Of a stretch of 64,000 nucleotides of DNA, positions 5,057-58,204 are shown in pieces. Within the stretch, counting starts at the first letter, position 1, and every line of letters begins with the position of its first letter. This DNA comes from Planctomycetota bacterium (GTDB lineage: Bacteria; Planctomycetota; UBA1135; UBA2386): contig JALORC010000012.1 in NCBI GenBank assembly GCA_025459175.1, forward strand, positions 23,978 to 87,977. The letters run 5' to 3'. A program made the translations under genes and the position numbers. Under the pieces are notes generated by a model, which worked only from the letters and a program-made list of their open reading frames with translations, made no database searches and was not told where the DNA came from.

Positions 5057-5905
5057 TCACGGTGCGACCGGGTGCCACAGCGTCTTCAGCTCGACGAACG
5101 GCTCGACGAACTGCAGCGAACGCAGCTTGCCGGCCTGCGTCCAGTCGGCGGTCGGCAGGTCGCAGTAGCGCACCCGCTTGCAGTTGTCGGCGGCTGCCGC
5201 GGTCAACGCCGCATCGGGAGCACCGGCGATCAGCAGCGCGTCGATGTCACGATGCGCGGCGAACTGCGGTGCCAACTCGCTGCGCAGGCCGCTCAGCAGG
5301 TTGATCGCACCGGCCGGGATGTCGCTCGATGCACACACCTCGCCGAGTGCCAGGCCCACGAACGGGGCCGGTTCGCTGACCAGCGCCACCACCGCGTTGC
5401 CACCGACCAGCAACGGCAGCACCAGGGCCAGCGTGCCCACCAAGGATGGCGCCGCCGGCGCGATCACCCCGACCACGCCGCACGGTTCGACCGTCGAGAA
5501 GTTGAAGAACGGCCCCTGCACCGCGTTCTGGCTGCCGAGCAGGCTCTGCACCTTGTCGCACAGCCCGGCATACCAGATGGTCAGCGCGATCGCGGTGTCG
5601 AGTTCCTTGCCCGCCGCGGCCTTGCTCGCACCGCCGAGCAGCAGTTCCTGCTGCATCGCCTCGCGCCGCGACTCCAGCATCTCGGCGAGGCGATACAGCA
5701 CCTGACCGCGCAGATACGCGGTGCTGCCCGACCACGCGGCGAGTCCGGCGCGCGCGGCCTGCACCGCATCGCGCAGGTCCTTGCGGCTGCCGCGCGCGAC
5801 GTTGAGCGCCGGATTGCCGGCGGGCTGGTAGCTGCGGCCGGACTCGCTGCGCGGGAACTTGCCTCCCACGTAGAGCTTGTAGGTCTTCGGCACCGGGACG
5901 GTCAT
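5057..5905 (-). CDS. Aldehyde-dehydrogenase-family protein containing only the N-terminal/NAD-binding part (282 aa)
   Basis: N-terminus KLYVGGKF...SESGR and GGNAVVALVSEP resemble the ALDH cofactor domain. No catalytic Cys/Glu region is present. It lies directly upstream of deoA on the same strand. Confidence 0.4.
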   Translation of the reverse strand: MTVPVPKTYKLYVGGKFPRSESGRSYQPAGNPALNVARGSRKDLRDAVQAARAGLAAWSGSTAYLRGQVLYRLAEMLESRREAMQQELLLGGASKAAAGKELDTAIALTIWYAGLCDKVQSLLGSQNAVQGPFFNFSTVEPCGVVGVIAPAAPSLVGTLALVLPLLVGGNAVVALVSEPAPFVGLALGEVCASSDIPAGAINLLSGLRSELAPQFAAHRDIDALLIAGAPDAALTAAAADNCKRVRYCDLPTADWTQAGKLRSLQFVEPFVELKTLWHPVAP

Positions 5906-5981
5906 TGGTGCAAGGTGCCGAGCGGACGGCCGGGAAGCAAGCGCGGCGCGGCGCGTGCTGCGGCGTGCATTGCGCCCGCGG

Positions 5982-7187
5982 CTACCGGATCGTGAACCCG
6001 GCCGCGGTCGCGGCGGAGAACGCCGACGCAGCGCCGACCAGCACCGATTGCAGCACGCCCTGCAGCCCGACCAGCGACGGCTGCAGCGGGATCGCGATCG
6101 GGATCGCGACCGGACCGGTGATCAACCCACCGGTCAGGATGCCGAGATCGCCGCCGACCACCAGTTCGCCCAGCAGGTTCGGCAGCGCAATCGAGCCGAA
6201 GCCGGTGCCGAGCAACAGCACGAACGCCTGGTTGCCGACCTCGGCCCGGACCGTCACCGGGGTCGTGCTGCCGAGTGCGAGTTCGGTGACGCCCAACGGC
6301 AACTCGGTGCGCGCGATGGTGTCGGGCAGGCACGCCATCAGGAACGACGGCGCGCCCTGCACCGCGACCGCCGACGCCGCCGGGTCGGTGGTCAGCAACA
6401 CCGTGGCGCAGCAGCGGATCGAACCGGCGCTGCCGCCCACGTCGTGCACTGCGTGGCCGCCGAGCACGCCGAGCCACGCCCCGACTGGCGGCTGGCCGCC
6501 GACCAGATGGCAATCGACCGCCCACAGCGAGTCGCTGCCGCGGATCGCGATCGCATCGCCACCCTCGATCGACGGCGCATCCGAGCGATTGCCCTGCAGC
6601 ACCGTGCGCGTGAGCTGCACCGGCGTCGAGTCGACGAACAGCGCCGCCAACCCGGCGGTGCCGGCGGCCCCGTTGCAGCGATAGCGATAGTCGCCGGCGC
6701 GCACGCGATCGCACCACAGCGACTCGACGTCGCGCACCTCGATCAGGCCGTCGTAGGCGACGGGGCCGAAGCTGTTCGACAGCACTTCGACGGCCAGCAA
6801 GCGCACGTGGCCGAGCCCGTTGCCGGTGATGACGATCGCCGGCGCGGCGGCGGTCGCGGTCGCGCGCGCATGCGCGATGGTGACCTGCTGGAACGGCTGC
6901 AGGCCGGTGACGGTGATCGCCGGCGCGCCGCTGACCGTGAACACCGCGCCGGCACCGCTGCTCTGGTTGCCGATCACCGCGAGCTGCTTGCCCTGGATCA
7001 CGAACGGCGCGTAGGTGCCCGGGTCGACTTCGATGACGTCCCCGTTGGCGGCCGCATTCACGGCCGCCTGGATGTCGGCGAACGCGCGAGTCGGTCCGAC
7101 CTGTCGCACGATGCCCTGCGCGGCGAGCGGCGCCGGCAAAAACCACCACAGGGTCGCCGAGGCGACGGCAGCGATCCGGATCATCAT
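5982..7187 (-). CDS. Secreted right-handed beta-helix-like protein that shares the family C-terminal module
   Basis: Start chosen at MMIRIAAVASATLWWFLPAPLAAQ (signal peptide). GDVIEVDPGTYAPFVIQG resembles a pectate-lyase-like N-terminal turn. The C-terminus PLQPSLVGLQGVLQSV...AAGFTIR matches the module seen in three other secreted proteins here. Confidence 0.5.
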   Translation of the reverse strand: MMIRIAAVASATLWWFLPAPLAAQGIVRQVGPTRAFADIQAAVNAAANGDVIEVDPGTYAPFVIQGKQLAVIGNQSSGAGAVFTVSGAPAITVTGLQPFQQVTIAHARATATAAAPAIVITGNGLGHVRLLAVEVLSNSFGPVAYDGLIEVRDVESLWCDRVRAGDYRYRCNGAAGTAGLAALFVDSTPVQLTRTVLQGNRSDAPSIEGGDAIAIRGSDSLWAVDCHLVGGQPPVGAWLGVLGGHAVHDVGGSAGSIRCCATVLLTTDPAASAVAVQGAPSFLMACLPDTIARTELPLGVTELALGSTTPVTVRAEVGNQAFVLLLGTGFGSIALPNLLGELVVGGDLGILTGGLITGPVAIPIAIPLQPSLVGLQGVLQSVLVGAASAFSAATAAGFTIR

Positions 7188-7402
7188 CGCACCATCGAAG
7201 CCGGGTTCGTCGCAGCTGGCAATCCACTGCCGACGTCGGTCACCGCACCTCGCTCTGGGTGACGACGGTGCGGATTTTCGACCATGTCGCTGCACCCTTT
7301 GCCGGCGTCCCCGAGATCGTAGGGCACCTCCTGATGGTCGATCCCGCGCCCCCACCCACACACCTGCCCACCCGCGGCGATCGGACCGCGACCGCGGCCG
7401 GC

Positions 7403-7867
7403 ATGCGCCCGGCCCTGTGGCGCTACCTGCGCGTGCTCGGCGCCGATGCGGCGACCGCCGACGACCTGGTGCAGGAGGCGTTCGTCGTGATGCTGCAGCG
7501 CGAGCAGTTCGATGGTTCGGTTCCCGGCGCCGTGTTCACGTTCCTGCGCAGCACGGCGCGGCACCTGTGGCTGCGCTCGCGGCAGCGCCGCAGCAGCGAA
7601 CGGGAGGTCGAGGAAGCGGATGCGGTGTGGACGGCGCGCTGCGGCGAGGGTCCGGGCGACGAGTATGTCGACGCCCTGCGCGCTTGCATGGCACAGCTGC
7701 CCGAACGCAGTCGCGCGCTGCTGGCGGCGACCTACGGCGACGGGGCTGGCCGCGCCGAGGCCGGCGAACGCGTCGGCATCGGCCGCGACGGCGTGAAGAG
7801 CGCGCTGCGGCGGCTGCGCACGTTCTTGCACGACTGCATCACACGGCGATTGGCGAGGACCCGATGA
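7403..7867 (+). CDS. ECF-subfamily RNA polymerase sigma-70 factor
   Basis: Region 2 (DDLVQEAFVVMLQR) and region 4 (GVKSALRRLRTFL). Its stop overlaps the next start (ATGA). Confidence 0.7.
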   Translation: MRPALWRYLRVLGADAATADDLVQEAFVVMLQREQFDGSVPGAVFTFLRSTARHLWLRSRQRRSSEREVEEADAVWTARCGEGPGDEYVDALRACMAQLPERSRALLAATYGDGAGRAEAGERVGIGRDGVKSALRRLRTFLHDCITRRLARTR

Positions 7868-9519
7868 ACCACTCCGATTCCGTCCGCGCGGCCGAAGAAC
7901 GTCTGCTCGACGCCGCACTCGCACAGCACTTCGCGAGCGCGTCCGCGGCAGCGCCGCCGGCGACGACGCCACGATGGCTGCTGGCCGCGCTGGTGCTGCT
8001 CGGCATCGTGGTCACCGCGGCCACGATGTGGCACACGCGCACCGCCCCTCGCGACGAAGCGCAGGACCCGCCGCCAGCCCCCTTGCCCACCGAGGTGACC
8101 GGCTCCGGCAAGACCGAGCTGCTGGCACTGCCGGTCGACACCGAGAACCTGCTCGCCAAGATCGTCGATCCGCGCGACCTGTCCACGGTCACACGCTTCA
8201 CGCAACTGCGCCGTTTGCGGTTGTCGGCGGAGCAGATCCACATCGCCGGCATCAAGTCCGGCAGACTGCATCCCCAGTGGAGCGATCCACCACAAGACCT
8301 GCTGGCCCCGCTTGCCACGCTGCCGCTACTGGAGTCGATCCATCTCCCGACCCAGCTGCGGGTCGCACCGGAGCTGCTGGCCCCGCTGGCCGCACATCAG
8401 ACCTTGCGTGAGGTGACGCTGGCCGGCTACGGGATCACGATCGACGGCAACCTGCGCGCCGTCCTCGCGGCGATCCCGAAGCTGCGCCATCTGCACTTGC
8501 ATGGCGTCGATATCGAGGGGTCTGTACTCGAGCATCTGACGGCCCTACCGCTCCATTCGCTCGAGATGGCATCCTGTTCGGGCCTCGATCCCACCGACTG
8601 GGCAGCACTGGTGACGATGCGCACTCTGCAGCACCTGTCGTTGCAGGACTGGAGCTACGACCAGCTGACTCGCTTCACGTTCCGAGAGGGGACCGAACAA
8701 CACGACGCCGCGTCGAAGCGTGTGTGGCATCCCACCGCGGAGCACATACGTGCACTGGCCGGTCTGCCGAACCTGCGCCGCCTCGAACTGCACCAGTGCA
8801 GCCTCGACGACGAGCAGTTCGCGGCACTGCCGGAGACCTTGAACGGCCTGAGCCTGCGCAACACCAGGCTGACGCCAGAGGGCATCGGCGCGCTCAGCCG
8901 GCTGGTGGCATTGCGCGAACTCCACTTCGACACCAGGGCCCGCGGCTACACGCTCGCCGACTTGTTCGCCCCCGACGACGAACCGGCCGCCGAGGCATTC
9001 GCAATGGCGATCCCCACGCTGCGACTGCGATCCCTCGAGTACCACGGTGCGCTGCCGCCATCGGTTGCGAACGCGATCGGCAAGCAAACGGAGTTGCGCG
9101 AGCTCACCATCGTGAGCAAGCGCCCGGCAGCGGACACGGCCACCACCTTGCTGCGCGCGCTGCGGCTGCACCGCCTGTCGTGGCAGGCGCCCGTCACCAG
9201 CGACCTGCTGCTGGCACTGGCGAAGCAACCGGACCTGCGCGAACTCGAGTTGCGCGCCGACGACATTGCCGACGTGACAGCACTCGCTGCGGCTCCGCTA
9301 CTGCAGAACCTGACCCTGACCAAGATGAGCATCGGTCAGGGCGTGACCACCGCGCTGCTGGCTCCACTCGCCAGCTCGAAGTCGCTGCGCACGATCGCGG
9401 TCGCCGTCAGCATCGAACGCGGCAGCAAGCACCCGACCGAGGCCGAGCTGCAGCGCGCCGTCGGCGAACGCATTCGCCTCCGACTGCACCGGTCCGAGTT
9501 CGTCACCGGCAAACGCTGA
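7864..9519 (+). CDS. Membrane anti-sigma-factor-like protein with an extracytoplasmic leucine-rich-repeat domain
   Basis: ATG overlaps the sigma stop (ATGA at 7864-7867). One TM helix (WLLAALVLLGIVVTAATMW), followed by repeated LxxLxLxxxxI/L units (LRRLRLSAEQIHIAG, LRHLHLHGVDIEG, LQHLSLQDWSY, LRRLELHQCSL...). Confidence 0.55.
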   Translation: MNHSDSVRAAEERLLDAALAQHFASASAAAPPATTPRWLLAALVLLGIVVTAATMWHTRTAPRDEAQDPPPAPLPTEVTGSGKTELLALPVDTENLLAKIVDPRDLSTVTRFTQLRRLRLSAEQIHIAGIKSGRLHPQWSDPPQDLLAPLATLPLLESIHLPTQLRVAPELLAPLAAHQTLREVTLAGYGITIDGNLRAVLAAIPKLRHLHLHGVDIEGSVLEHLTALPLHSLEMASCSGLDPTDWAALVTMRTLQHLSLQDWSYDQLTRFTFREGTEQHDAASKRVWHPTAEHIRALAGLPNLRRLELHQCSLDDEQFAALPETLNGLSLRNTRLTPEGIGALSRLVALRELHFDTRARGYTLADLFAPDDEPAAEAFAMAIPTLRLRSLEYHGALPPSVANAIGKQTELRELTIVSKRPAADTATTLLRALRLHRLSWQAPVTSDLLLALAKQPDLRELELRADDIADVTALAAAPLLQNLTLTKMSIGQGVTTALLAPLASSKSLRTIAVAVSIERGSKHPTEAELQRAVGERIRLRLHRSEFVTGKR

Positions 9520-9659: not shown

Positions 9660-10250
9660 ATGCCCAGAGCCAAGAGTCGACCGTCAGGACCTGACTGGGA
9701 GGCACTCTACCAGCGCGCCGAGACCCAGGCCGGCCACTTCACACTCGCTGACGCGAGAGCCTGCGGCTACTCGTCGCAGTTGCTGCAGAAGCACCTCGCA
9801 GCGGGCCGCATGCAACGAGTCCGGCGAGGCATCTACCGACTCGCCCACTTCCCGATCACGGCACACGAAGAACTGGTCGCGCTGTGGCTCTGGTCGGATC
9901 GGCTCGGCGTGTTCTCACACGAGACGTCGCTGGCGCTGCAAGACCTGTCGGACGTCCTGCCGGCGCGCGTGCACATGACGCTACCGACCAATTGCCAGCG
10001 CCGGCGCCAGCAGGTCCCGCCCGGTGTCGTGCTGCACTACGCCGACCTGCCGGCTCACGCCAAGGCGTGGCACGAGGCGATTCCGCTGACGGCGCCGATC
10101 CAGGTTCTCACCGAGTGCGTCGAGGCGAACGTATCGCCTGAGCTCGTCGACCAAGCGATACGGCAGGCGCTGCGCCGCGGGCTGGTGGCTCGCGAGGCGG
10201 CCGCAGCACTGCGGATGCGGATTCGGCATCGAGGACGTCGGACCGCTTGA
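9660..10250 (+). CDS. abiEi: Type IV toxin-antitoxin antitoxin, AbiEi family (wHTH transcriptional regulator)
   Basis: N-terminal AbiEi_4-like pattern (FTLADARACGYSSQLLQKHLAAGRMQRVRRGIYRL). Stop overlaps the downstream start (ATGA). Confidence 0.7.
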   Translation: MPRAKSRPSGPDWEALYQRAETQAGHFTLADARACGYSSQLLQKHLAAGRMQRVRRGIYRLAHFPITAHEELVALWLWSDRLGVFSHETSLALQDLSDVLPARVHMTLPTNCQRRRQQVPPGVVLHYADLPAHAKAWHEAIPLTAPIQVLTECVEANVSPELVDQAIRQALRRGLVAREAAAALRMRIRHRGRRTA

Positions 10251-11158
10251 CACACCCTCGCTACACAACGCCACAAGCCTTCAAGCAGGCGCTCGAGCAG
10301 CGCCTGCGCGCCACCTCCGTCACCGGGATCGACATCGAGCGGCGGCGCCAGCTGCTCGTGTTCGACCGGTTCCTGGCGCGGGTCAATGCGGCCGAAGGGG
10401 ACGCGGTCATCCTGAAGGGAGGGCTCGTGCTCGAACTGCGTTCGGCGCGAGCACGCACCACCAAGGATGTCGATCTGCGGATGATGGGCACCCATGCCGA
10501 GCTCCTGGTTCGCCTCCAAGCGGCCGGGCGCGCCGACCTGCAGGATTTCCTTCGTTTCGAAGTACAGCGCGATCGCCACCACCCGGACATCCGCAGCGAG
10601 GGCATGAAGTACGCCGGCTATCGATTCACGGCCGAATGCCGACTCGCGGGCAAGCCGTATGGACGGCCATTCGGCGTCGACGTGGCATTCGGCGACCCTC
10701 TCGTCGGCGCTCCCGATGAAGTTGTCGGCGACGACCTGCTCAGCTTCGCCGGGATCGAACCGGCCAGATTGCGCCTGTATCCCGTCGTCTCCCACATCGC
10801 CGAGAAGCTGCACGCATACACGTTGCCGCGAACGCGCCCGAACTCACGAATCAAGGACCTGCCGGACCTCGCCTTGCTGGCCAACGTCGGCACCCTGGAC
10901 GCACAGACACTGCGAACGGCGCTCGAACGGACCTTCGCATTCCGCGCCACCCACCCGCTGCCGATCGCGCTCCCGCCACCCGCCATCGACTGGAGCGCCC
11001 CTTATCGGGCGATGGCGCAGACGGATGAGCTGCCGTGGCCGGACCTGGCTGCAGTGACCGCCGCCGCGAGCACCTTTCTCGATCCCATCCTGATCGGCAC
11101 CGTGCACGAAGGCACCTGGCAACCAACATCGTGGCGCTGGCTCACGACACGACGCTGA
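10247..11158 (+). CDS. abiEii: Nucleotidyltransferase toxin, AbiEii/AbiGii family
   Basis: ILKGGLVLEL...TKDVDL nucleotidyltransferase core, about 300 aa, translationally coupled to abiEi. Confidence 0.75.
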   Translation: MTHPRYTTPQAFKQALEQRLRATSVTGIDIERRRQLLVFDRFLARVNAAEGDAVILKGGLVLELRSARARTTKDVDLRMMGTHAELLVRLQAAGRADLQDFLRFEVQRDRHHPDIRSEGMKYAGYRFTAECRLAGKPYGRPFGVDVAFGDPLVGAPDEVVGDDLLSFAGIEPARLRLYPVVSHIAEKLHAYTLPRTRPNSRIKDLPDLALLANVGTLDAQTLRTALERTFAFRATHPLPIALPPPAIDWSAPYRAMAQTDELPWPDLAAVTAAASTFLDPILIGTVHEGTWQPTSWRWLTTRR

Positions 11159-13734: not shown

Positions 13735-14400
13735 ATGTCCCGGCGGAGCCGCGGCGGCGACATGTGCGTGATCCCAACTATCGACCTATGGCCGCGGCTG
13801 CGGCGCTTGCTGCAACGGTTCGCCTACGGCGACCGCGCCGAGGACGTGGTGCAGGAGGCGACGCTGCGGCTGTGGCGGCGCTTCGGCGCCGAGCCGCCGC
13901 TCCGTGATGCCGTGCAGCTCGGCCGCAAGATGGTGCACGACTTGCTGGTCGACGATCACCGCCGACGCCGGCCCCAGCTGCTCGGCGATGCCGATGCCGG
14001 CCTGCCGAGCCGGCCGCCCCACCACGCGTTCGACTCACTGGCGGCGCTGGTCGGCGATGCCGCGCTGGTCCGAGCCCTCGGTCCGCGGGCGCTGCAGTTG
14101 CTCGAACTGCTCCTGGCCGGCGAGCGGCGCAACCGCGTGTTGGCGGTCTTGCTCGGCACGTCGCCGGCCGCGATCCGCCGCCGCCGCGCGCGCATCGCCC
14201 GCATCCTGAACGACCATCTGCGGCGTGAATTGCCCGCCGGCAGCGGCGTCGAGGATCCCTCCGAACGGTCTGTGGACGACGGTTTCCGATCATCCCAAGG
14301 AGGCTTCCAGTGTCACGAGTCCAAGTCCTGTCCACGTCCTTGCCAGCCGGCGGCGCCACCGCCGGGCGACGACGGCCCGCCCAGATCCATGCCAGAGTGA
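13735..14400 (+). CDS. ECF-like sigma factor with a C-terminal extension
   Basis: Sigma region 2-like EDVVQEATLRLWRRF and region 4-like LLELLLAGERRNRVLAVLLGTSPAAIRRRRARIARIL. Its stop TGA 14398-14400 overlaps GTG 14397 of the next gene. Confidence 0.45.
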   Translation: MSRRSRGGDMCVIPTIDLWPRLRRLLQRFAYGDRAEDVVQEATLRLWRRFGAEPPLRDAVQLGRKMVHDLLVDDHRRRRPQLLGDADAGLPSRPPHHAFDSLAALVGDAALVRALGPRALQLLELLLAGERRNRVLAVLLGTSPAAIRRRRARIARILNDHLRRELPAGSGVEDPSERSVDDGFRSSQGGFQCHESKSCPRPCQPAAPPPGDDGPPRSMPE

Positions 14401-17400
14401 GTGCGCTGCTGGCCGCCGCCGCGCTCGGTTCCCTGTGCAGCTCGGCACGGGCCCAAATGGTGCCCGGCAACGTGCCGGTGACGGTGCCGATCAACCAGAG
14501 CGTCGGCGCCGGCGCGACCACGAACGGCAACTTCTTCGACAACACCAAGGGCAACCTGGTGCGCCACCAGCTCGGCCACATCCGCCCGCTGGCACTCGGC
14601 GCCGGCGGCACGCTGCTGGCCCCGAACAACGCCGGGCAACGCCTCTCGATCCTGTTGGCCTCGACCGGCGCCCTGCTCGGCGAGATCCCGACCGGCCCCG
14701 GCATCACGGCGGTGCTGCCGCGGCCCGGCAGCAGCGAGGTCTGGGCCGTCGACAGCGTCAACGGGTGCGTCAGCGTGATCGACCCGGGCACGCTGCGGAT
14801 CGTGCGCACGATCCAGGTCGGCAAGGAACCACATGGCATCGTGTTCACAGCCAACGGCTCGCGCGCCTACGTGACTTGCTCGGCCGCCAACCGCGTCGAC
14901 GTCATCGACTGCGCCAACTACACCGTGCAGAAGAACATCCCGATCCCGGCCATCGGCCCGCGCGGCATCGCGATCACCGCGGCAGCCACGAACACCCCGG
15001 AGATCGTGTGGGTGGCGCCGATCTACTCGGGCAACAACACGGTGAGCAAGCTCACCGCACCGCCGCAGCCGCCCCCGTTGACGCCACCGTTCGCCGGCGC
15101 CCAGTCGGTCGTGGTGCCGAATCCTGCCCTCGGTGAGATCCCGTTGCCGGACCAGGATCTGTTCGCCATCCCGGTGACGGCGAGTGCAACCAGCGACGCA
15201 CTCGATCCGAGCCGCACCCGCACCGGACTCGGCACGATCCTGCTCAACCTGCACGCGCGCCCCGGCACCACGGAGCTGTGGATCCCCAACACCGACGCGC
15301 GCAACCTCACCATCGGCGAAGCCAACTTCGTCGGCGGCAAGGTGGTGTCCAATCGGATCACCATCGTGAACACGGCGACGTCGGTCGGCACGCTCCCGAT
15401 CGTGCTCGATCTCGACCTGATGGCCCCGGCCGGCGCCGCCCAGCCGGCGGCGGTCGCGTTCGATGCCCCGCGCAATCGCGCCTACGTCGCGGCGTTCGGC
15501 AGTGATGTCGTGCTGGTGCTGAACACCGGCGCCGCCGGCTACCCGGTGATCGGTCGTCACACGCTGCGCGCGCGGACGCCGTCGCTGCCGGTCGCCCCGA
15601 ACACCGCCGCCCGCTGCGGGCCGCGCGGCCTGCAGCTGTCGGCGAACGGCAACGAGCTGTTCGTCTATCACGGCATCGACAACTCGTGGACACGCATCAA
15701 CCTCGCCGTGCTGAACTCGGCGGCTCCGCTGGCCTCGACGCTGGGCTTCGATCCGACCCCGGCCGAGGTCAAACGCGGACTCGGCCATCTGGCCAATGCC
15801 GACCACTCGCCTAGCAAGACCAGTTCCTGCATGTCGTGCCACGTCGACGGACACTTCGACATGCTGACCTGGAACCTGGCCGCGTTCCGCGACCCGGCCA
15901 ACACGTCGAACCCGCAGTTCGAGATCGACGACAAGGGGCCGATGGCGACCCAGAGCCTGCGCGGCCTGTTCGAGTCCGGTCGCTTGCACTGGCGCGGCGA
16001 GCAGGTCGGCCTCGACGACTTCAACGTCGACGGCTTCCAGGTCCTGCTGCACCGATCCACGCCGCTGACCGCAGCCGAGTTCGAGGACGTGCGCGCCGGC
16101 ACCAACTCGCTGGTGTATCCGGCCAATCCACGCGCGCCGAACGACCGCGTCTACTCGGGCGCGCTCGGAACCGGACTCGATGCGTTCCGTCGCACCACCG
16201 CCGTCGGTCCCGACACCTGCGCGAGCTGCCACAGCCTGCCGCTCGGCACCAACACCGAACTGCAGGTGTTCGCCGCTTCCGGCATCCCCGCCCACTCGGG
16301 CAAGGTCGCCCAGTTGCGCGGTGTCGGCGACAAGGTTTCCCAGTCGGTACCCGTGTTCACCGACCCTGCGTACCTGGTGAGGGTATCGGCCGGATCGACG
16401 ATCCTGGATCGACGCAGCTGCAACGGCTGGGGCCTGACGCACGGCGCCACCGTCGACTCCATCGCGACCTTCGTCGCCACCTTCCCCGGCATCTTCTTCG
16501 CCGACCTGGTCCCCGAAGTGAGCGCCTTCGTCGACGCCTTCGACACCGGCCTCGCGCCATCGACGACCTGGCAGCGCACGCTGGTGCCCGTCGTGCACAC
16601 GCTCGCCGAATGGCAGGCCGCGCTGGCTGCATTCAAGGCCCAGGCCCAGGCCGGCAACTGCGATGTCGTGGTCGCCACCGCGGTGCTGGTCGGCGGCCTG
16701 CCGACGCCGGTCACCCTCTGCTGGGACCACGCGCTGCAGCGGTGGCAGACCGCGGCCGGTTGGGCGTCGTTCGACGACGCGATGATGGACGCCTTCCTGT
16801 TCGGCGCCGGCTTCACGGTCACGCTGTTCGGTCAACCACTCGGCACCGGCCGTCGCTTCGGGGTCGACCGCGACCTCGACGACCTGCTCGACGACGACGA
16901 GGCGAACTTCACGCCGTTCCTGCCGTCGCACCGCACCGATCCGGACACGGACCGGGACGGGTTCCCCGACGGCCACGAGGCCAAGCACGCGCCGACGATG
17001 AACCCGCGGGCGCTGAACACGACCTCGCCGGACGTGACCGCACCGCAGTTCACGTCCCCCGCCGGGAGCGTCGTCACCTGGGTGACGGCATCCTCCGCGA
17101 AGCTCGAGTTCACGACCGATGAACCGACCACGGCGGCGATCGATCTCGATCTGGAGGCGACCACGAGCCCGACCAGCGGCAAGTTCGACCGCAACCATGT
17201 GATCCTGCTGCGCGACCTGCAGTCGAACACGACCTTCTCGTTCTCGATCAAGATCATCGATGTGAAGGGCAACGCGAACTCCCTCGCGGTCAGCCTGACG
17301 ACGATGCCAACCGGCGACGGCCTGCGAGTGGTATCGATCCAGGCCGCTCCGTTCGTCGCGAGCAACCTCACGGTGACGGTGGCGATCGGGTCGTTGCAGA

Positions 17401-17693
17401 ACCCGACCTCGACCGCCGGTGCCGGCCACAGTGTGTTCGCCTACGCCTACGCCGATGCCAACACCGTGCCGCTGACGCAGATCGCCGCCTCGTTGGCCCC
17501 GGTGACCGCCGGTCCGACCAAGCAGGCGACGTTCACCGTGGCGGTGCCGGCGAACGTGCTCGCCGCTCCGGCCGGCACGCGTCGCCTGCACTTCGGCGTG
17601 CGAAACGTGATCCCGCCGTTCCCGCTCCCGGCCGGCGCCTTGCCATACATCGAGGCCAACGACGTGATCAGTCATCGGGTCATCACGTTCTGA
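14397..17693 (+). CDS. Large secreted protein with a YVTN beta-propeller, two CXXCH heme-binding motifs and an Asp-rich Ca-binding-like repeat
   Basis: GTG 14397 gives a clean signal peptide (SALLAAAALGSLCSSARA|Q); an alternative ATG at 14310 exists. Contains YVTN-type repeats (AYVTCSAANRVDVID), CMSCH at 15828-15842 and CASCH at 16218-16232 (about 130 aa apart), and DRDLDDLLDDDE...DPDTDRDGFPDG. Confidence 0.6.
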   Translation: MSALLAAAALGSLCSSARAQMVPGNVPVTVPINQSVGAGATTNGNFFDNTKGNLVRHQLGHIRPLALGAGGTLLAPNNAGQRLSILLASTGALLGEIPTGPGITAVLPRPGSSEVWAVDSVNGCVSVIDPGTLRIVRTIQVGKEPHGIVFTANGSRAYVTCSAANRVDVIDCANYTVQKNIPIPAIGPRGIAITAAATNTPEIVWVAPIYSGNNTVSKLTAPPQPPPLTPPFAGAQSVVVPNPALGEIPLPDQDLFAIPVTASATSDALDPSRTRTGLGTILLNLHARPGTTELWIPNTDARNLTIGEANFVGGKVVSNRITIVNTATSVGTLPIVLDLDLMAPAGAAQPAAVAFDAPRNRAYVAAFGSDVVLVLNTGAAGYPVIGRHTLRARTPSLPVAPNTAARCGPRGLQLSANGNELFVYHGIDNSWTRINLAVLNSAAPLASTLGFDPTPAEVKRGLGHLANADHSPSKTSSCMSCHVDGHFDMLTWNLAAFRDPANTSNPQFEIDDKGPMATQSLRGLFESGRLHWRGEQVGLDDFNVDGFQVLLHRSTPLTAAEFEDVRAGTNSLVYPANPRAPNDRVYSGALGTGLDAFRRTTAVGPDTCASCHSLPLGTNTELQVFAASGIPAHSGKVAQLRGVGDKVSQSVPVFTDPAYLVRVSAGSTILDRRSCNGWGLTHGATVDSIATFVATFPGIFFADLVPEVSAFVDAFDTGLAPSTTWQRTLVPVVHTLAEWQAALAAFKAQAQAGNCDVVVATAVLVGGLPTPVTLCWDHALQRWQTAAGWASFDDAMMDAFLFGAGFTVTLFGQPLGTGRRFGVDRDLDDLLDDDEANFTPFLPSHRTDPDTDRDGFPDGHEAKHAPTMNPRALNTTSPDVTAPQFTSPAGSVVTWVTASSAKLEFTTDEPTTAAIDLDLEATTSPTSGKFDRNHVILLRDLQSNTTFSFSIKIIDVKGNANSLAVSLTTMPTGDGLRVVSIQAAPFVASNLTVTVAIGSLQNPTSTAGAGHSVFAYAYADANTVPLTQIAASLAPVTAGPTKQATFTVAVPANVLAAPAGTRRLHFGVRNVIPPFPLPAGALPYIEANDVISHRVITF

Positions 17694-19952: not shown

Positions 19953-20009
19953 GCGCCGCGGACGAAGCTGCGACACCCGGCGGAGCCGACGCGGCGATAT
20001 CCTGCGGCG

Positions 20010-22211
20010 ATGCGTTCCCGCTTGTTGCTGTCGCTGGTGGTGTCTTGGGTCTCGTCGTCTTCGATCACTTGCCAGGAGGGTGTGCCGGCACCGCAGGGCC
20101 TGGTGCCCGAGCAGATGTGGTTCGCCCCCACTGCCGCGGACTGGCAGAAGCCGGTGGCGATCCGCTGGCAGCGCACCTGGGACGACGCGGTGCGGCTGTC
20201 GCAGCAGACCAAGCGCCCGATCCTGGTCTGCGTCAACATGGACGGCGAGATCGCCAGCGAACACTACGCCGGCGTGCGCTACCGCGACCCGGAGCTGGCC
20301 AAGCTGTGGGAACCGTACGTGTGCGTGATCGCGTCGGTCTACCGCCACACCCCGCGCGACCACGACGACGAAGGTCGCCGCATCCCGTGCCCGCGGCTCG
20401 GCCATGTCACCTGCGGCGAACACATGGCGATGGAGCCGATCGTCTACGAGAAGTTCCTCGACGGCAAACGCATCTCGCCGCGCCACATCATGGTCGAGCT
20501 CGACGGCAGCGAGGTCTACGACGTGTTCTACACGTGGGACACGCAGTCGGTGTTCGACACGCTGCGCGACGGCATCAAGAACCGCAAGCTGCAGGCGCCG
20601 CCGATCGTCAAGGGCGATCGTTCGATCCGCGAGCAGCTGCAGAGTCCCGACAGCGCCGATCGCGAGGCGATCGAGAGCATGTTCCGGGCCGCCACGCCGG
20701 AGCAGCGGCAGGAGCTGATGGCGCTGGCGCTCGCCGAGGGTGAGCGAGCGCCGATCGAGCTGCTGCGGCAGGCGGCGTGGAGCCTCGATCCCGAACTCGT
20801 CAAGCAGGCCCGCGCCGGCATGCTGCAGGCCGCCGATCCCGGCACCGTCGAGCTGATCGCCGACACGCTGAAGGCGCCGCTGCTGGCCGAGGAACGCAAG
20901 GCGTTGGCGCAGTCGCTGCGTCGCTTCGCCGGCAGTTCGGTGCGGGCGCAGAGTCTCGCCGCCGCGCACAGCGGCCTCGCCGGCGGCAGTTCGGCGATCG
21001 ATGCGAACAGCTGGAGCCAGGTGCTGGCCGGGCAGAGCTACGCGAGTGCCGCCGGCGCCGATCCGGCCGCCGCCGCCACCGCGCGCGACGAGGCGCTGCG
21101 CGACAAGCCGATGGACGCGACCGCGCGCCTCGACGTCGCCGAGTCGAACCTGCTGCAGGCGTTCGAGGTCACCGCCGGTGCCGGCCGCGGCAGCGTTCGC
21201 CTCGCCGCGCGGCAGCGCGAACTGCTGCTCGCCGATGCCAGCCGCCATCTCGACGCCGCCGCGGCGGCCGGTGCGGCCGGCTGGCGCCCGCTGGCGCTGC
21301 AGGCGCTTCTGCACTGCGAGCGGCAGCAGATGCCGAAGGCCTACGAGCTGGCGATCCAGGCCGCACCGTTGCTGCCGCCCGACGCGCCGGGCCGCGTGGC
21401 GATGGAGGTGCTGGCGCTGTTCGCCGCCGCCCGCCAGGAAGCCATCGTCGCCGCGGTGCGCAGCAAGCAGGAGTGGGACCCTGCGTGGATGACCGACATC
21501 CACACGACCTACAGCCTGCTGCGCCAGCACCCGCTCGGCACCGACCGGCAGGTCGCGATGCACTTCGACTTCCTGCAGTTCTTCGGCGCGCCGGACCTCG
21601 ACCAGCTGCTGCAAGCGGGGCTCGAGCGCTTCCCGGCCTCGGCGCTGCTGCACGAACGGTGGCGCCAGCGGCTGCTCGAGCAGCGCGGTCCGGATGGCCT
21701 CGAAGCCGCCTACGCCGAGCGCCTCGCCGCGACCTCGGCGACACCGGCCGAGGCGTGGTTCGCCGGCTATGCGAGCCTGTGCGCCGCCGAGGCGCATCGC
21801 CGCACCTCGCAGCCGGACGCGGCCGCGGCGGCCTACCAACGCGGCATCGGCCATTTCGAACGCTATGCCGCGGCCAGCGGCAACAGCGACGGTGCGCACT
21901 ACGTGGCGATGGCACACGGCGGTCTGGCGCGGCTCCGGCTGCAGCAGGACGACCTGCCCGGCACGTTCGCCGCGCTGCAGCGCGTGTTCGCGATCGCGCC
22001 GGCGGCCGCCGCCGCCACCGACGGTCTCGGCATCACCGCGATGCAGACCGCCGAGATGCTGCGCGGCAAGGCCCTCGACCGGAAGGACGAGGCGCTGCTG
22101 GCGCAACTGCAGGCGGCGCTGCAAGAGCTGCCGCCGGAGGCGTTCGAACTGCCCGAGTACGAGCGGGCGTCGCGCGGTCAGGGCAACGGCGGCGCTCGCC
22201 GCCGCCGCTGA
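20010..22211 (+). CDS. Secreted thioredoxin-fold (Thioredoxin_7-like, no CxxC) domain protein with a long alpha-helical repeat region
   Basis: Signal peptide. KRPILVCVNMDGE...YVCVIASV resembles a DUF255/Thioredoxin_7 fold lacking the redox Cys pair, followed by about 500 aa of Ala/Leu-rich helices. Confidence 0.4.
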   Translation: MRSRLLLSLVVSWVSSSSITCQEGVPAPQGLVPEQMWFAPTAADWQKPVAIRWQRTWDDAVRLSQQTKRPILVCVNMDGEIASEHYAGVRYRDPELAKLWEPYVCVIASVYRHTPRDHDDEGRRIPCPRLGHVTCGEHMAMEPIVYEKFLDGKRISPRHIMVELDGSEVYDVFYTWDTQSVFDTLRDGIKNRKLQAPPIVKGDRSIREQLQSPDSADREAIESMFRAATPEQRQELMALALAEGERAPIELLRQAAWSLDPELVKQARAGMLQAADPGTVELIADTLKAPLLAEERKALAQSLRRFAGSSVRAQSLAAAHSGLAGGSSAIDANSWSQVLAGQSYASAAGADPAAAATARDEALRDKPMDATARLDVAESNLLQAFEVTAGAGRGSVRLAARQRELLLADASRHLDAAAAAGAAGWRPLALQALLHCERQQMPKAYELAIQAAPLLPPDAPGRVAMEVLALFAAARQEAIVAAVRSKQEWDPAWMTDIHTTYSLLRQHPLGTDRQVAMHFDFLQFFGAPDLDQLLQAGLERFPASALLHERWRQRLLEQRGPDGLEAAYAERLAATSATPAEAWFAGYASLCAAEAHRRTSQPDAAAAAYQRGIGHFERYAAASGNSDGAHYVAMAHGGLARLRLQQDDLPGTFAALQRVFAIAPAAAAATDGLGITAMQTAEMLRGKALDRKDEALLAQLQAALQELPPEAFELPEYERASRGQGNGGARRRR

Positions 22212-22241: not shown

Positions 22242-24095
22242 TCAGTCCGGGCTGATGTACGAGCGGATGCCGTTGCTGGTCACCAGCCCGAAGCCGTTCT
22301 GGCCGTTCGGCAGGCTGAACGGCACCACCAGCGCACACGACTGCGCGAACAGCTCGAAGCCGGTCGGCACGCCGGCCGGAATGTCGAACGTGACCGCCAA
22401 CATAGGCGAGCCGCCGACCAGGGTCTGCGTGAGGTTGAGCGCCAGCACGTGCGCACGGCAGCCGGGCGCGCCGAGGAAGCTGAGTTCGACACCCGGCACC
22501 GGCACGCCGGCGAGGCTGAGGATGTTGGCGCCGAGGTAGATGCCGCTGCCGGGCGCGGCTTCCGGGATGTTGGTGGTCGTGTAGGTCACCGTGGTGCCCG
22601 AGCTCGCGGTCGACCGCGGCGCCGGCGTGGCCGACAGCTGCAGCGCCTGCCGATCGGGCGAGGTCGTGCGCGGCAGTGCCGTGGCCAGCACGATCGAGCC
22701 CGGATCCGCCGAGGCGCCGCCCGGCGAGAAGCCGATCACGTGGCCCGAACCGAACTGGCTGGTGGTGTTGTCGTCGATGTCGACCCAGACCAACCGGACC
22801 TGGCCGGAGCCGAGGTTCAGCTGGAACTGCAGCGTGCTCGGATTCGCGATCGGCGCGGGCGGGAAGTTCTCGACGCCGTCCCAGGTGATGCAGGCGACGG
22901 TGTCGGCACCGACCAGCACTTCCTCGTACTTCACCCGACCGCTGCCGACCTCGGTCGGGTTGTAGTCGTGCCAGGACCAGAACGCGGTGCGGCCGGCGGC
23001 GAGCAGGGCCGCTGGCGTCGGCGTGTAGGGATTGGTGCCAGGGAAGTTCTGCGGCACCGGCCCCAGCGACACGATGCCATTCGCGTGCACCCGGAGGTCG
23101 GTGGCGGCACCGAACGGCGACGGCAGCGGCTGCGACGGCGTGACGGTCGTGTCGCCGTCATCGGCGATCACCAACGTCGTGGCGGCGCCGGTCGGCGCGA
23201 TGTAGCTGCCACCACCCCAGACCGCGGTGTAGCCGTTCGTGGTCGGCGTCAGCACCATCGACTGGCCGGTCAACGCCGCGGCCGCTGGCACGGCGGTCGC
23301 GAAGCCCTGATAGAACGACTCGACCGCCATGTCATAGCAGCCCTGGCCGTAGCTGGTGTGCGACGCCGGCAGCGAGCTCAGCACGTCGAAGCCACCACCG
23401 CCGTTCGGCGTGAAGCGCAGGCAGCGCAGCGCGAGATCGAAGGCACCGCCCGGGAACCGCTCGAACATCAGCTGCGTGGAGCCGCTGGTGTTGGCCTGCG
23501 AGAAATCGACCCCGGGCACCGCCGCGATGCCGTTGCCGGCCGAGACCCCGAGGATCACCGGGGCCACTGAATCGGTCGTCGGGCCGTAGGCGAACGACAC
23601 CTCGCCGGTGGCGAACAGTTGCGCCTGGATCGTGAACAGCGGCCCAGGGGTCTGGAACTGGATCGCGTTCTGCCAGGTGACGACGAATTTGCCGGGCAGC
23701 GTGTTGTTGATCCAGACGGCGCCATTGTTCGCCGCATCGAGCACCAGATCGCGCCAGAACGGAGCGATGCGCGGCGGCTGGCCGGAGTTGCCACGCAAGT
23801 TGGTGAGCTGGGCCGCGGCGTTGGTCGAGAAGCCGGTCGTGGTGGCGCCCGACAGCGCGCCATTGGTCAGGAACACCACGCCGTTGGTCTGCACGTGTGC
23901 GTGGGTGTAGCTGGCGGCGACCCCACCGATCGGAAAGGCGAAGTTCAACGGCTGCAGGTCGAACAGCTCGTCGTCACCGACGCCCGGTGCGTTGGCGCCG
24001 CGCGGGGCCAACACGCCGAGGTTGGTTTCGAAACACTGGGCCGACAATGCGGGCACCAGCAAGACTGGCAACAAAACGGAGGCGAGAGACTTCAT
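22242..24095 (-). CDS. Secreted protein with NIDO-like motifs and the shared C-terminal module (paralog of the 43911-45638 protein)
   Basis: Signal MKSLASVLLPVLLVPALSAQ. ETNLG...GDD, QTNGVVFL and PRIAPFWRDL motifs. C-terminus LFAQ...GLVTSNGIRSYISPD. Confidence 0.55.
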   Translation of the reverse strand: MKSLASVLLPVLLVPALSAQCFETNLGVLAPRGANAPGVGDDELFDLQPLNFAFPIGGVAASYTHAHVQTNGVVFLTNGALSGATTTGFSTNAAAQLTNLRGNSGQPPRIAPFWRDLVLDAANNGAVWINNTLPGKFVVTWQNAIQFQTPGPLFTIQAQLFATGEVSFAYGPTTDSVAPVILGVSAGNGIAAVPGVDFSQANTSGSTQLMFERFPGGAFDLALRCLRFTPNGGGGFDVLSSLPASHTSYGQGCYDMAVESFYQGFATAVPAAAALTGQSMVLTPTTNGYTAVWGGGSYIAPTGAATTLVIADDGDTTVTPSQPLPSPFGAATDLRVHANGIVSLGPVPQNFPGTNPYTPTPAALLAAGRTAFWSWHDYNPTEVGSGRVKYEEVLVGADTVACITWDGVENFPPAPIANPSTLQFQLNLGSGQVRLVWVDIDDNTTSQFGSGHVIGFSPGGASADPGSIVLATALPRTTSPDRQALQLSATPAPRSTASSGTTVTYTTTNIPEAAPGSGIYLGANILSLAGVPVPGVELSFLGAPGCRAHVLALNLTQTLVGGSPMLAVTFDIPAGVPTGFELFAQSCALVVPFSLPNGQNGFGLVTSNGIRSYISPD

Positions 24096-36666: not shown

Positions 36667-37818
36667 ATGAAGATGCTCGCCTCGCTCGTCGCCACCGCCG
36701 CGGTGGCAATTCCCTTCCTGCCGGCGCAGAACCAGGCCCTGCAGCTGACCACCGGTACCGACGGCGGCGTCGAATACCAGTTCGACGCGCGCATGGTGCC
36801 ACCGACCGGCATCACCGTCGAAGCCTGGATCACCTACGACGACAGCACGGTGCCGACCGGCCAGGGCTACTACCCGACGATCGCCCGCCAGAACATCGCG
36901 CCCAGCACCGAGAGCTGGAACTTCCGCGTCTCCGCCGCCACCACCGGGGCGCGCAACCTGCAGCTGATCATCCGCACCAACAACGGCTTCTTCGCGGCCA
37001 CCTACAACTTCGCCCCCGGCGAGTTCCTGGCGCCGACCCACGTCGCGGGCACGTTCGACGGCACCACGATCCGCGTGTTCAAGAACGGCCTGCAGGTTGC
37101 GCAGGGCGCGGTGCCGGTGCTCAGCGAAGTGCTCAACAACGGCGGTCTGATGCGGATCGGCAACGGCGATCCGGTGGCGCCGGGCAACGAGACCTGGAAC
37201 GGCACCATCGACGAGGTGCGCATCTGGCCGATGGCGCGCAGCGCCGGCGAGATCACCGCGACCCTGAACCAGGAGCTGCTCGGCCTGCCCGGCGGCGTGC
37301 TGACGTTCCCGCTGAACGGCAGCTACGACTCGAGCGACCTGACCGTGGTCGGCACCGCGTTCGGCACCAGCGCGTTCGTCGCCGGCACCACGCTGCCGCC
37401 GGCCGCCGCGGTGCTGGTGCCGCTGGCGCAGCCGTCCAGCAACTGCGCGCGCAAGCCGCAGATCCTGGTCGGCAGCCTGCCGCAGATCGGCAACCCCGCG
37501 TTCGCGTTCTGGTGCGTGCGCGGCCCACGACCGGCGACTTCGCCGGCCGGTGTCGTGTTCGCCGCCGACAGCCCGGCCCCGGTCGGTCAGCCGCCGGTCC
37601 TGGGTCTCGACCTCGCCTTCGACCTGGCGACGATCGCCGCCTCGGCGGTGCTGGCGCCGCCGACCAACGCGCTCGGCAATGCGACCTTCCCGCTGCCGAT
37701 CCCGAACCAGCCGTCGCTGGTCGGACTGGGCTGGGTGTTCCAGTTCGGCTTCCTCGACGCGCAGTGCGGCCCGCAGGGCATCACCACCAGCGACGGCCTG
37801 CAGTTCGTGATCCAGTGA
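36667..37818 (+). CDS. Secreted LamG/concanavalin-like lectin-domain protein carrying the shared C-terminal module
   Basis: Signal MKMLASLVATAAVAIPFLPAQ. LamG_3-like VEAWITYDD...FDGTTIRVFKNGLQ...NGTIDEVRIW. C-terminus PNQPSLVGLGWVFQ...TTSDGLQFVIQ. Confidence 0.6.
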   Translation: MKMLASLVATAAVAIPFLPAQNQALQLTTGTDGGVEYQFDARMVPPTGITVEAWITYDDSTVPTGQGYYPTIARQNIAPSTESWNFRVSAATTGARNLQLIIRTNNGFFAATYNFAPGEFLAPTHVAGTFDGTTIRVFKNGLQVAQGAVPVLSEVLNNGGLMRIGNGDPVAPGNETWNGTIDEVRIWPMARSAGEITATLNQELLGLPGGVLTFPLNGSYDSSDLTVVGTAFGTSAFVAGTTLPPAAAVLVPLAQPSSNCARKPQILVGSLPQIGNPAFAFWCVRGPRPATSPAGVVFAADSPAPVGQPPVLGLDLAFDLATIAASAVLAPPTNALGNATFPLPIPNQPSLVGLGWVFQFGFLDAQCGPQGITTSDGLQFVIQ

Positions 37819-43910: not shown

Positions 43911-45638
43911 ATGCGCACCACCACTCTGCTCGCCGCCGCGGCGTGCTTGACTTCCTCTCTCCTTGCCCAGGGCGCCCTGTCGGCCCCCTGCTTCGTCACC
44001 AACCTCGGCGCCCCGCTCGGTCTCGGCGACGACCAGGTCGCGGCCAACAACGCCCTCGGCTTCACGTTCCCCGGCCCGGGCGGCACGTCGGTGACCAGCA
44101 TCGACATCAGCAGCAACGGCTTCGTCTGGCTCGGCAGCAATGCGAGCGCGGACTGCTGCAACGGCGACGTCACCACCTTCCTGACCGATACCCCGCGCAT
44201 CGCGGCGATGTGGACGGACCTCTACCCGCCGGGCAACGGCGACGTGTACTTCAACACGTTCCCGGCCAGCGGCACACAGCCCGCCAGCGCCGTGATCACC
44301 TGGAACGACTGCCCCGAGATCGGCACCACCGACCTGCAGAGCATCCAGCTGCAGCTGTTCGCCGACGGCTCGTTCGTGATCGCGTACGACCTGCGTTGCG
44401 GCAACCTGAACCACGACGCACTGGTCGGGGTCACCGAAGGCGTGGCGGCCGTCGCCAACCCGATCGACTTCGCCGCCATCACGGGAGGTGCACCGCACCT
44501 CAGTGGCACCAACCCGACCATCCACGAGCTGCTGCCGTTCTCGTGGGACCTCGCCGGCAAGTCGTTCGCGTTCGTGCCGAACGGCAGCGGCGGCTACATC
44601 GTGCTCGATCGGCCGAGCTGCGCATACGCGGACGTCCGCACGCTCGGCGCCGGGTGCCCGCAACCGCTGGTGGCCTACGAGCTGTTCCAGACCCCGGCCA
44701 CGATCGACCTCGCGAACACCGCGCTGGAGTTCATCCCGACCGGCGGCGGCTACGTGACGCTGCCCTCCACCGGCTTCTTCACCGGCTACGCCGGCGCGCA
44801 GACGTTCTTCGACGACGAGGTGAAGGGCCCGTTCGCGTTGCCGTTCCAGTTCCCGTTCGGCGGCGGGCTCGTCAACTCGATCGACATCAGCAGCAACGGC
44901 TTCGTCTGGCTGTCGGCCGGCAACGCCGATGCGCGCTGCTGCAACGGCGACCCGGCCACCTTCCTGGCCGACCCGGCGAGCATCGCCCCGCTGTGGCAGG
45001 ACCTCAATCCGTTCGCCGGTGGCACGATCTACTTCGACCTCGACCCCAACGGCGTCGAAGCCCACGTCACCTGGCTCAACGTGCCGGAGTACCTCACCAA
45101 CAACCTGAACACGGCCCAGCTGACGCTGCGCAGCAACGGCAGCTTCCGGTTCTCGTACGGCAACGTGGTGAACCAGAACCACGACCTGCTGGTCGGCGTC
45201 TGCCAAGGTGCCGCCCAGATCGATCCGGGCAGCTCGGACTTCAGCGCCGGTCCGGTGGTGGTGAACTCGGGTGGCATCCCGCTGCGCCTGCAGGCCCAGG
45301 CCAATGTCCGCCCGGTGCTCGGCACGACGTTCGCGATGGACGTCGACCAGATCACCGCCGGCTCGCTGATCGGCATCATGGCGTTCGGTGCCACCACCTT
45401 CACGCCGGGCCTCGACATCTCGTCGATCGGCATGCCGGGCTGCCAGCTCTACGCGTCGCTGGACGCACTGCTGTCGTTCCCGCTGACCGGCTCACCGACC
45501 ACCTACTCGTTCCCGGTGCCGAGCAGCCCGACGCTGACCGGGCTCGTGTTCTACGCCCAGGCCGCGACGCTGACGCCCGGCGTCAACCAGCTCGGCCTCA
45601 CGGCGTCGAACGGCCTCGAGCTGACGCTCGGCCTGTAG
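43911..45638 (+). CDS. Secreted protein with tandem NIDO-like domains and the shared C-terminal module
   Basis: Signal MRTTTLLAAAACLTSSLLAQ. Two copies of IDISSNGFVWL...CCNGD...IAAMW/IAPLWQDL. C-terminus GLVFYAQ...TASNGLELTLGL. Confidence 0.55.
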   Translation: MRTTTLLAAAACLTSSLLAQGALSAPCFVTNLGAPLGLGDDQVAANNALGFTFPGPGGTSVTSIDISSNGFVWLGSNASADCCNGDVTTFLTDTPRIAAMWTDLYPPGNGDVYFNTFPASGTQPASAVITWNDCPEIGTTDLQSIQLQLFADGSFVIAYDLRCGNLNHDALVGVTEGVAAVANPIDFAAITGGAPHLSGTNPTIHELLPFSWDLAGKSFAFVPNGSGGYIVLDRPSCAYADVRTLGAGCPQPLVAYELFQTPATIDLANTALEFIPTGGGYVTLPSTGFFTGYAGAQTFFDDEVKGPFALPFQFPFGGGLVNSIDISSNGFVWLSAGNADARCCNGDPATFLADPASIAPLWQDLNPFAGGTIYFDLDPNGVEAHVTWLNVPEYLTNNLNTAQLTLRSNGSFRFSYGNVVNQNHDLLVGVCQGAAQIDPGSSDFSAGPVVVNSGGIPLRLQAQANVRPVLGTTFAMDVDQITAGSLIGIMAFGATTFTPGLDISSIGMPGCQLYASLDALLSFPLTGSPTTYSFPVPSSPTLTGLVFYAQAATLTPGVNQLGLTASNGLELTLGL

Positions 45639-58105: not shown

Positions 58106-58204
58106 TCCGCGGCAAGCTCCGGCGCCGGCCACGGCCGTGCGCCGCGGCCGACGAACGGCTACCGTGCCGCGCTGGCTGCGGCCACACCGCACCGGGAGTC
58201 CATC

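Follow-up and report, generated by a model that had tools for sequence, protein, structure and literature searches.

C-terminal folded tags on secreted proteins are, as a kind, already known. The T9SS CTDs of Bacteroidota (PF18962/TIGR04183; type B, TIGR04131) are Ig-like sandwiches of about 70-100 aa that stand at the very end of cargo proteins exported by Sec, one per protein and behind varied passengers (adhesins, proteases, lectin-like modules), on tens to hundreds of scattered carriers per genome and within one phylum-level lineage. In T11SS (Slam/DUF560), which is proteobacterial, a variable N-terminal effector is followed by an all-beta C-terminal domain of about 8 strands, a TbpB-like barrel, that is recognised by an outer-membrane translocon. 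The LPXTG/sortase, PEP-CTERM/exosortase, MYXO-CTERM and GlyGly-CTERM/rhombosortase systems also place one type of C-terminal tag on diverse secreted passengers and show lineage-specific paralog expansions. Their signals are tripartite and measure only 25-40 aa, a TM helix and a basic tail coming after a short motif. The Planctomycetota domain described here resembles the T9SS CTDs in all the respects listed, follows the same logic as T11SS cargo in joining a variable N-terminal part to a conserved all-beta C-terminal domain, and shares with the tripartite signals both the single tag on diverse passengers and the lineage-specific expansion. Unlike the tripartite signals, it is a soluble fold of about 120 aa. 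It differs from T9SS CTDs in its greater length, in its own set of motifs (GxGC, GMPGC, IPNxPxLxG, Q, PGxN, SNG) with a conserved Cys pair, and in sequence, there being no detectable relationship and no match to PF18962, TIGR04183 or TIGR04131. T9SS is not known from Planctomycetota. Ig-like and FN3 domains of bacterial surface proteins, or associated with CBMs, are usually internal or tandem, whereas the Planctomycetota domain is single and terminal.

The window analysed here, a stretch of DNA of 64 kb with a GC content of 71%, carries four genes (A to D, Table 1) that an earlier reading, made from the letters of the window (the sequence-only reading), had described as otherwise different secreted proteins sharing a recurrent C-terminal module of roughly 40 aa. 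The NCBI record of the contig is titled 'Planctomycetes bacterium', with locus tags from MUC36_04915 on. All four ORFs are present and end where that reading had placed them, and the calls agree with the NCBI proteins. Each begins with a Sec-type signal peptide with a likely cleavage at …A|Q, located by eye and with no prediction tool: MMIRIAAVASATLWWFLPAPLAA|QG in A, …VPALSA|QC in B, …IPFLPA|QN in C and …TSSLLA|QG in D. The N-terminal domains had been said to differ (beta-helix, LamG, NIDO-like), and this holds in part. The LamG domain of C is clear (Laminin_G_3, PF13385, aa 38-196, E 1.4e-19), while the beta-helix of A is a weak NosD/beta-helix-like match (E 8.6e-4). In both B and D the signal peptide is followed by a NIDO-like passenger with two repeats, for which there is no direct Pfam match, NIDO being known from other family members. 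B and D are paralogous over their full length (E 1e-25, with 28% identity across some 600 aa), which leaves three independent architectures in the window and not four. Protein D is 56% identical to a family member from other Planctomycetota MAGs (P0026). No further copies of the domain were found in the window beyond these four.

Table 1. Carrier genes A to D and their C-terminal domains, with positions counted from the first letter of the window.
Feature	Position	Strand	Length	NCBI protein	Description
Gene A	5982-7187	(-)	401 aa	MCU0863112.1	'hypothetical protein'
C-terminal domain of A	5985-6299	(-)			degenerate/marginal; from profile, hhalign and AF2
Part of A tail matched by the family profile	5997-6137				IPLQPSLVGLQGVLQ and flanks; the only part matched
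Gene B	22242-24095	(-)	617 aa	MCU0863125.1	'hypothetical protein'
C-terminal domain of B	22245-22631	(-)			GAPGC…IPAGVPTGFELFAQ…TSNGIRSYISPD
Gene C	36667-37818	(+)	383 aa	MCU0863138.1	'LamG domain-containing protein'
C-terminal domain of C	37441-37815	(+)			divergent; without GMPGC, retains IPNQPSLVGL…Q…TSDGLQFVIQ
Gene D	43911-45638	(+)	575 aa	MCU0863144.1	'hypothetical protein'
C-terminal domain of D	45273-45635	(+)			canonical 8-strand beta sandwich, RPVLGTTF…DISSIGMPGC…VPSSPTLTGLVFYAQ…PGVNQLG…SNGLELTLGL

The pattern [IV]P..P[ST]L.G[LF]..[FVY].Q, which had been given for all four tails, is found exactly in A, C and D; B departs from it by a one-residue deletion. These three occurrences in the six-frame translation compare with none in 200 shuffled sets. 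Against shuffled controls, with which the sequence-only reading had proposed to compare the tails, three pairs stand clear in local alignments with 500 shuffles (z 8.2 for A-C, 11.7 for C-D and 9.1 for B-D, 120 aa), and the pairs A-B and B-C do not reach significance by themselves. The profile search that the same reading had suggested bears out three of the four copies. A profile built without the window's sequences, for which the best of 1,000 shuffled control tails reached 9.6 bits, matches the tails of D (136 bits), B (54 bits, E 1e-18) and C (34 bits, E 1e-12), and that of A at only 11.5 bits; hhalign gives 98.9% for B and 97.3% for C. The tail similarity in B, C and D is true homology, and all three are members of one domain family. 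The whole domain measures about 115-130 aa and not about 40, the motif first noticed being its last two strands.

The family is large. Word-indexed homology searches returned 11-13 metagenomic fragments only, and an exhaustive profile search was required. HMMER run over 1.84 billion representatives yielded 11,330 clusters at E<=1e-3, which gives the family count that the sequence-only reading had proposed to make; at E<=1e-10 there are 4,723. The consensus is GxGC…L.LaAsaRPvlGTT…NiPag…PGiDLt.lGMPGC.lyvslD…IPN.PsL.Gl.vy.QsaalaPGaNplG.vtSNGl.l.iG, and the cysteine of GMPGC is present in 159-162 of 166 members, depending on the pattern used. Among these 166 retrieved proteins, the end of the domain is the last residue in 149 and lies at most two residues away in 164; none contains two domains. 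Between 80 and 90 of them, by the test applied, have a hydrophobic N-terminus like that of a signal peptide, and in 66 of 90 complete members A/G-Q occurs near the expected cleavage site. The signal peptides of the Planctomycetota carriers thus tend to leave a Gln at the new N-terminus, in the manner of the 'Q-rule' of Bacteroidetes (PMC5837995). The recurrent, beta-rich C-terminal module that had been claimed for signal-peptide proteins is thus borne out well beyond the window.

Passengers are highly varied and include Kelch, NIDO, RCC1, DUF5122, sortilin/BNR, PKD, S8 peptidase (subtilase), C-type lectin, LamG and glycosyl hydrolase. Kelch propellers gave the commonest passenger match among 60 relatives sampled, a glycosyl hydrolase was seen in one of the 60, and many passengers are unrecognisable. 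Proteins made up of a signal peptide and the domain only are rare (about 2 of 80, P0008 and P0047), and P0047 is the one protein in which the domain is placed N-terminally. A local search for paralogs lacking the C-terminal domain gave three cases and was uninformative.

AF2 predicts the domain with confidence (pLDDT 87) as a compact and generic Ig/FN3-like sandwich, in keeping with the beta-rich tail of the sequence-only reading, which had asked for such a prediction; the tail of A reached only 49. The model superposes on FN3/Ig sandwiches, among them Ig-like domains of CBM proteins and chitinases, and not on barrels such as that of T11SS cargo, for which there is also no Pfam match. Foldseek returned no match below E 0.02. 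A partner for the GMPGC cysteine usually lies 50-70 residues upstream, in GxGC, and 80-170 residues upstream in the NIDO type; from this spacing, the two cysteines are probably joined by a disulfide. A free GMPGC cysteine that would serve for covalent anchoring was rejected as the default, an upstream partner Cys being present in most complete proteins.

The libraries searched were a 2025 copy of Pfam and NCBIfam release 20.0 (library dates 2025 and June 2026). Over the tails, neither gave a match for A to D (E<=1) or for the 60 relatives. With Pfam relaxed to E<=10, nine of ten isolated domains hit no family at all, and the tail of A gave a sub-threshold chance match to DUF543 (E 5.7). The PPC (PF04151), fn3, Big, PKD and CBM models do not match over the tail, the PKD matches lying in passengers, and the profile finds no chain in the PDB at E<=10. 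No relevant description of a C-terminal sorting domain from planctomycetes turned up in the literature. The family of about 120 aa appears to be undescribed so far. The domain marks thousands of exported proteins but has no entry in Pfam (2025) or NCBIfam (20.0), and all named members found are called hypothetical or after their passengers, an annotation gap in which one curated model would annotate more than 10,000 protein clusters.

The tails also lack the marks of the tripartite signals. In the last 40 aa of A to D the maximum KD (17-aa window) is 1.1-1.6 (family median 1.04), the last 10 residues hold 0-1 K/R, and PEP or LPxTG motifs are absent. The lack of a C-terminal TM helix and basic tail excludes signals of the LPXTG, PEP-CTERM, MYXO-CTERM and GlyGly-CTERM types, and any tag must accordingly be read as a folded domain. 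The earlier statement that the tail is not recognisable as PEP-CTERM, MYXO-CTERM, T9SS-CTD or LPXTG is upheld on these grounds and by the searches of Pfam, NCBIfam and PDB; no described sorting domain in Pfam or NCBIfam, a match to which that reading would have taken as refutation, corresponds to the tails.

To see which organisms carry the domain, 185,579 species genomes were scanned with the narrow motif D[LI][TS][SP][IL]GMPGC, and since the motif is narrow, the taxonomic picture is a lower bound. Of 56 confirmed loci, 52 are titled Planctomycetota or a lineage thereof and 4 only 'bacterium'; the carriers are MAGs throughout, with no isolates, and the GC content of the loci is 58-75%. Three cluster look-ups gave a consistent result, every named protein being a 'hypothetical protein' of a Planctomycetota or Planctomycetes bacterium. 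As far as sampled, the domain occurs only in uncultured Planctomycetota of one high-GC clade. Judging only by a similar GC content (67-70.5%), our hunch is that this clade might be the Saltatorellus group. Two MAGs have 8 loci each, found with a motif that is present in only 10 of 148 family representatives. In 25 of the 56 twelve-kb loci there are 2-4 members, and the window has 4 in 64 kb. Together these densities suggest, as a rough extrapolation, about 10^2 scattered members per genome.

The genes next to A to D are housekeeping genes (aconitase, thymidine phosphorylase, valS, recQ, RNase H genes, KDO-8-P synthase and an ECF sigma factor). When the window and the flanking parts of its contig were examined for sorting machinery, they likewise yielded housekeeping genes only, and nothing of the type of the T9SS core (SprA, PorV, PorU, GldKLMN) is encoded in the window. 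An all-against-all BLAST of the ORFs at the 56 loci revealed no conserved neighbour; the sole recurrent 'family' is the domain's own antisense frame, and the remainder is local synteny within three-locus groups. No partner machinery or processing enzyme, and no PorU-, PorV- or SprA-like partner, was seen in the window, the contig flanks or about 660 kb of related loci. The partners of PEP-CTERM (exosortase) and GlyGly-CTERM (rhombosortase) were revealed by profiling across genomes (PMC1569441, PMC3237569). The same approach, with the domain set against every protein family in genome after genome, could expose its partner machinery.

Little is understood of how Planctomycetota carry their very large repertoires of surface and secreted proteins over the outer membrane or place them on it. 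Terminal position, single copy, Sec export, varied passengers, some 10^2 scattered paralogs and restriction to one lineage together make up the pattern characteristic of a tag for sorting or anchoring, and the scatter of carrier genes among housekeeping genes is as expected of the cargo of a genome-wide system. Our preferred reading, which we hold as an evenly balanced proposition, is that the domain would be a lineage-specific sorting or surface-anchoring tag, similar to T9SS CTDs in function but not a member of them. In such a scheme, Sec would export the carriers, which bear signal peptides that seem by eye to be cleaved usually before Gln. The domain would fold in the periplasm, where the GMPGC-GxGC disulfide suggested by the spacing statistics would probably stabilise it. 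A shared lineage-specific partner, which might be an outer-membrane translocon, an attachment machinery or an envelope component, would then recognise the folded and free C-terminal end. Going by the architecture only, this partner would bring the variable passenger to the cell surface and retain it there. A more specific version, in which the domain would be the cargo tag of an independently arisen outer-membrane secretion and surface-attachment system, a T9SS analogue with about 100 cargo proteins per genome, is possible but doubtful. If the domain is indeed a tag, it would provide a computational catalogue of the carriers' cell-surface proteome and might be put to use in surface display.

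Some observations count against a tag, among them that no partner machinery, processing enzyme or conserved neighbour turned up in the DNA covered. The passengers are mainly binding modules with few enzymes, which fits an adhesion protein with one more binding domain, and the two proteins composed of a signal peptide and the domain, together with the N-terminal placement of the domain in P0047, would suit a binding domain better. The domain could accordingly be a binding or adhesion module (lectin-like, CBM-like or for protein-protein contacts) directed at a ligand outside the cell, for instance prey, polysaccharide on particles or biofilm matrix, its terminal position being a historical habit of the family. 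The Ig/FN3-like fold is common in CBMs and adhesin domains, passengers such as Kelch, lectin, LamG and NIDO themselves bind, the stand-alone proteins P0008 and P0047 exist, and the conserved surface motifs IPNxPxL, PGxN and SNG could make a binding site. We nevertheless regard this as rather unlikely: CBMs and the Ig domains of adhesins are usually found in tandem and at varied positions, whereas here 149 of 166 are terminal and none is repeated, carbohydrate-active enzymes are rare among the passengers (the one glycosyl hydrolase in 60), and no CBM or lectin family matches. Docking or oligomerisation, with the logic of dockerin and cohesin, into a scaffold or S-layer-like lattice, or service as a plain stalk, is improbable to a greater degree. 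It would share the many-to-one architecture of a tag and suit an extracytoplasmic domain with a putative stabilising disulfide, and older reports describe planctomycete envelopes as proteinaceous and cystine-rich; against it, no scaffold with a series of receptor modules was seen in about 660 kb of related loci. Docking also has much in common with the anchoring part of the tag reading and is inseparable from it here.

Two further explanations concern the identity of the domain itself. It is like T9SS CTDs in position, in size class and in its class of beta-rich fold, and might be taken for a highly divergent form of a known domain, be it a T9SS type A/B CTD, a PPC domain or a T11SS cargo beta domain; given the differences in motifs and the fruitless model searches described above, we rate this very unlikely. 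That the tails are alike by chance or composition, in a genome of 71% GC whose frames are rich in Ala, Gly, Pro and Leu, is hardly credible. The A-B and B-C pairs do not rise above shuffles and A alone is marginal, but the motif is absent from all 200 shuffled sets, A-C, C-D and B-D reach z = 8-12, C, B and D score 34-136 bits with an independent profile, there are thousands of relatives with the domain at the same position, and the fold is predicted with confidence. Chance likeness is refuted for B, C and D; in A it is conceivable, and there only in the N-terminal half of the tail.

Copy A, which the sequence-only reading had listed as copy 1 of 4, turned out to be the weakest of the four. 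Its 11.5 bits come from the IPxxPxLxG...Q part only, and the tail is without the GMPGC cysteine and the PGxN and SNG motifs. Aligned to the family profile with hhalign, it reaches 70% (P 3.9e-5) over 56 columns, with the alignment in register. We treat A as a putative, decayed and marginal member of the family, one that may no longer work as a tag. Its low AF2 score was obtained despite the use of the family alignment, and the last 45 residues or so of the model stand at a pLDDT of about 54-78.

Signal-peptide cleavage sites were read by eye. On this reading, glutamine directly follows the apparent site in all four secreted window proteins that share the C-terminal domain (A to D), and A/G-Q stands at the expected position in 66 of the 90 family members with signal-peptide-like N-termini (family proteins P0019-P0166). 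The 'Q-rule' (N-terminal pyroglutamate) is presented in PMC5837995 as specific to Bacteroidetes; the glutamine pattern seen by eye in the window and the family is similar.

B (22242-24095, minus strand) and D (43911-45638, plus strand) are paralogs over their full length (28% identity, E 1e-25), each with two NIDO-like repeats carrying the motifs …SSNGFVWL… and …W.DL.P…, and both conserve a cysteine immediately behind the signal peptide (AQCFETNLG in B, APCFVTNLG in D). Elsewhere, NIDO is known mainly as a metazoan extracellular domain.

Features of the window (/ marks the apparent cleavage site)
Feature	Position	Strand	Remark
Signal peptide of A	7119-7187	-	…LAA/QG, by eye
Signal peptide of B	24039-24095	-	…LSA/QC, by eye
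Signal peptide of C	36667-36726	+	…LPA/QN, by eye
Signal peptide of D	43911-43967	+	…LLA/QG, by eye
ECF-type sigma factor (Sigma70_r2/r4)	7259-7867	+	divergent from, adjoining gene A
549-aa protein, TM segment and leucine-rich repeats	7870-9519	+	next after sigma factor gene
AbiEii-family (PF08843) toxin-like gene	10247-11158	+	6030-6941 in locus L058
1154-aa ORF	14229-17693	+	coding frame; no Pfam family
752-aa ORF	19953-22211	+	coding frame; no Pfam family
728-aa ORF	58106-60292	+	coding frame; no Pfam family
558-aa polytopic membrane protein	45674-47350	-	convergent with gene D
Long antisense ORF	5905-6684	+	
Long antisense ORF	44222-44560	-	

Three family proteins have unusual architectures. 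In P0011 (198 aa) a pilin/pseudopilin-like N-terminal TM helix leads directly into the domain, and in P0047 (279 aa) the domain lies immediately behind the signal peptide and is followed by 117 more residues. P0013 (284 aa) joins the domain to a GroES (PF00166) region, probably a gene-call artefact.

Next to gene A, the sigma factor and the leucine-rich-repeat protein possibly form an anti-sigma or sensor pair. The membrane protein beside gene D has no Pfam match at E<=1e-4 and by eye looks like an ArnT/PMT-type glycosyltransferase. The AbiEii-family gene, adjoined by a small 146-aa gene as its upstream partner, is likely one half of a toxin-antitoxin or abortive-infection pair; housekeeping genes surround the two. 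The N-terminal 600 aa of the 1154-aa ORF are common to an ORF of carrier locus L042 (6417-9311), which terminates in a weak copy of the C-terminal domain (E 2e-4); the 1154-aa ORF itself lacks the domain.

A recurrent ORF 'family' suggested by all-against-all BLAST proved false, consisting of ORFs antisense to domain-coding DNA. Such long ORFs recur on the minus strand in 11 loci (L002-L057, about 5750-6300). They are a high-GC artefact, worth remembering when these genomes are mined.
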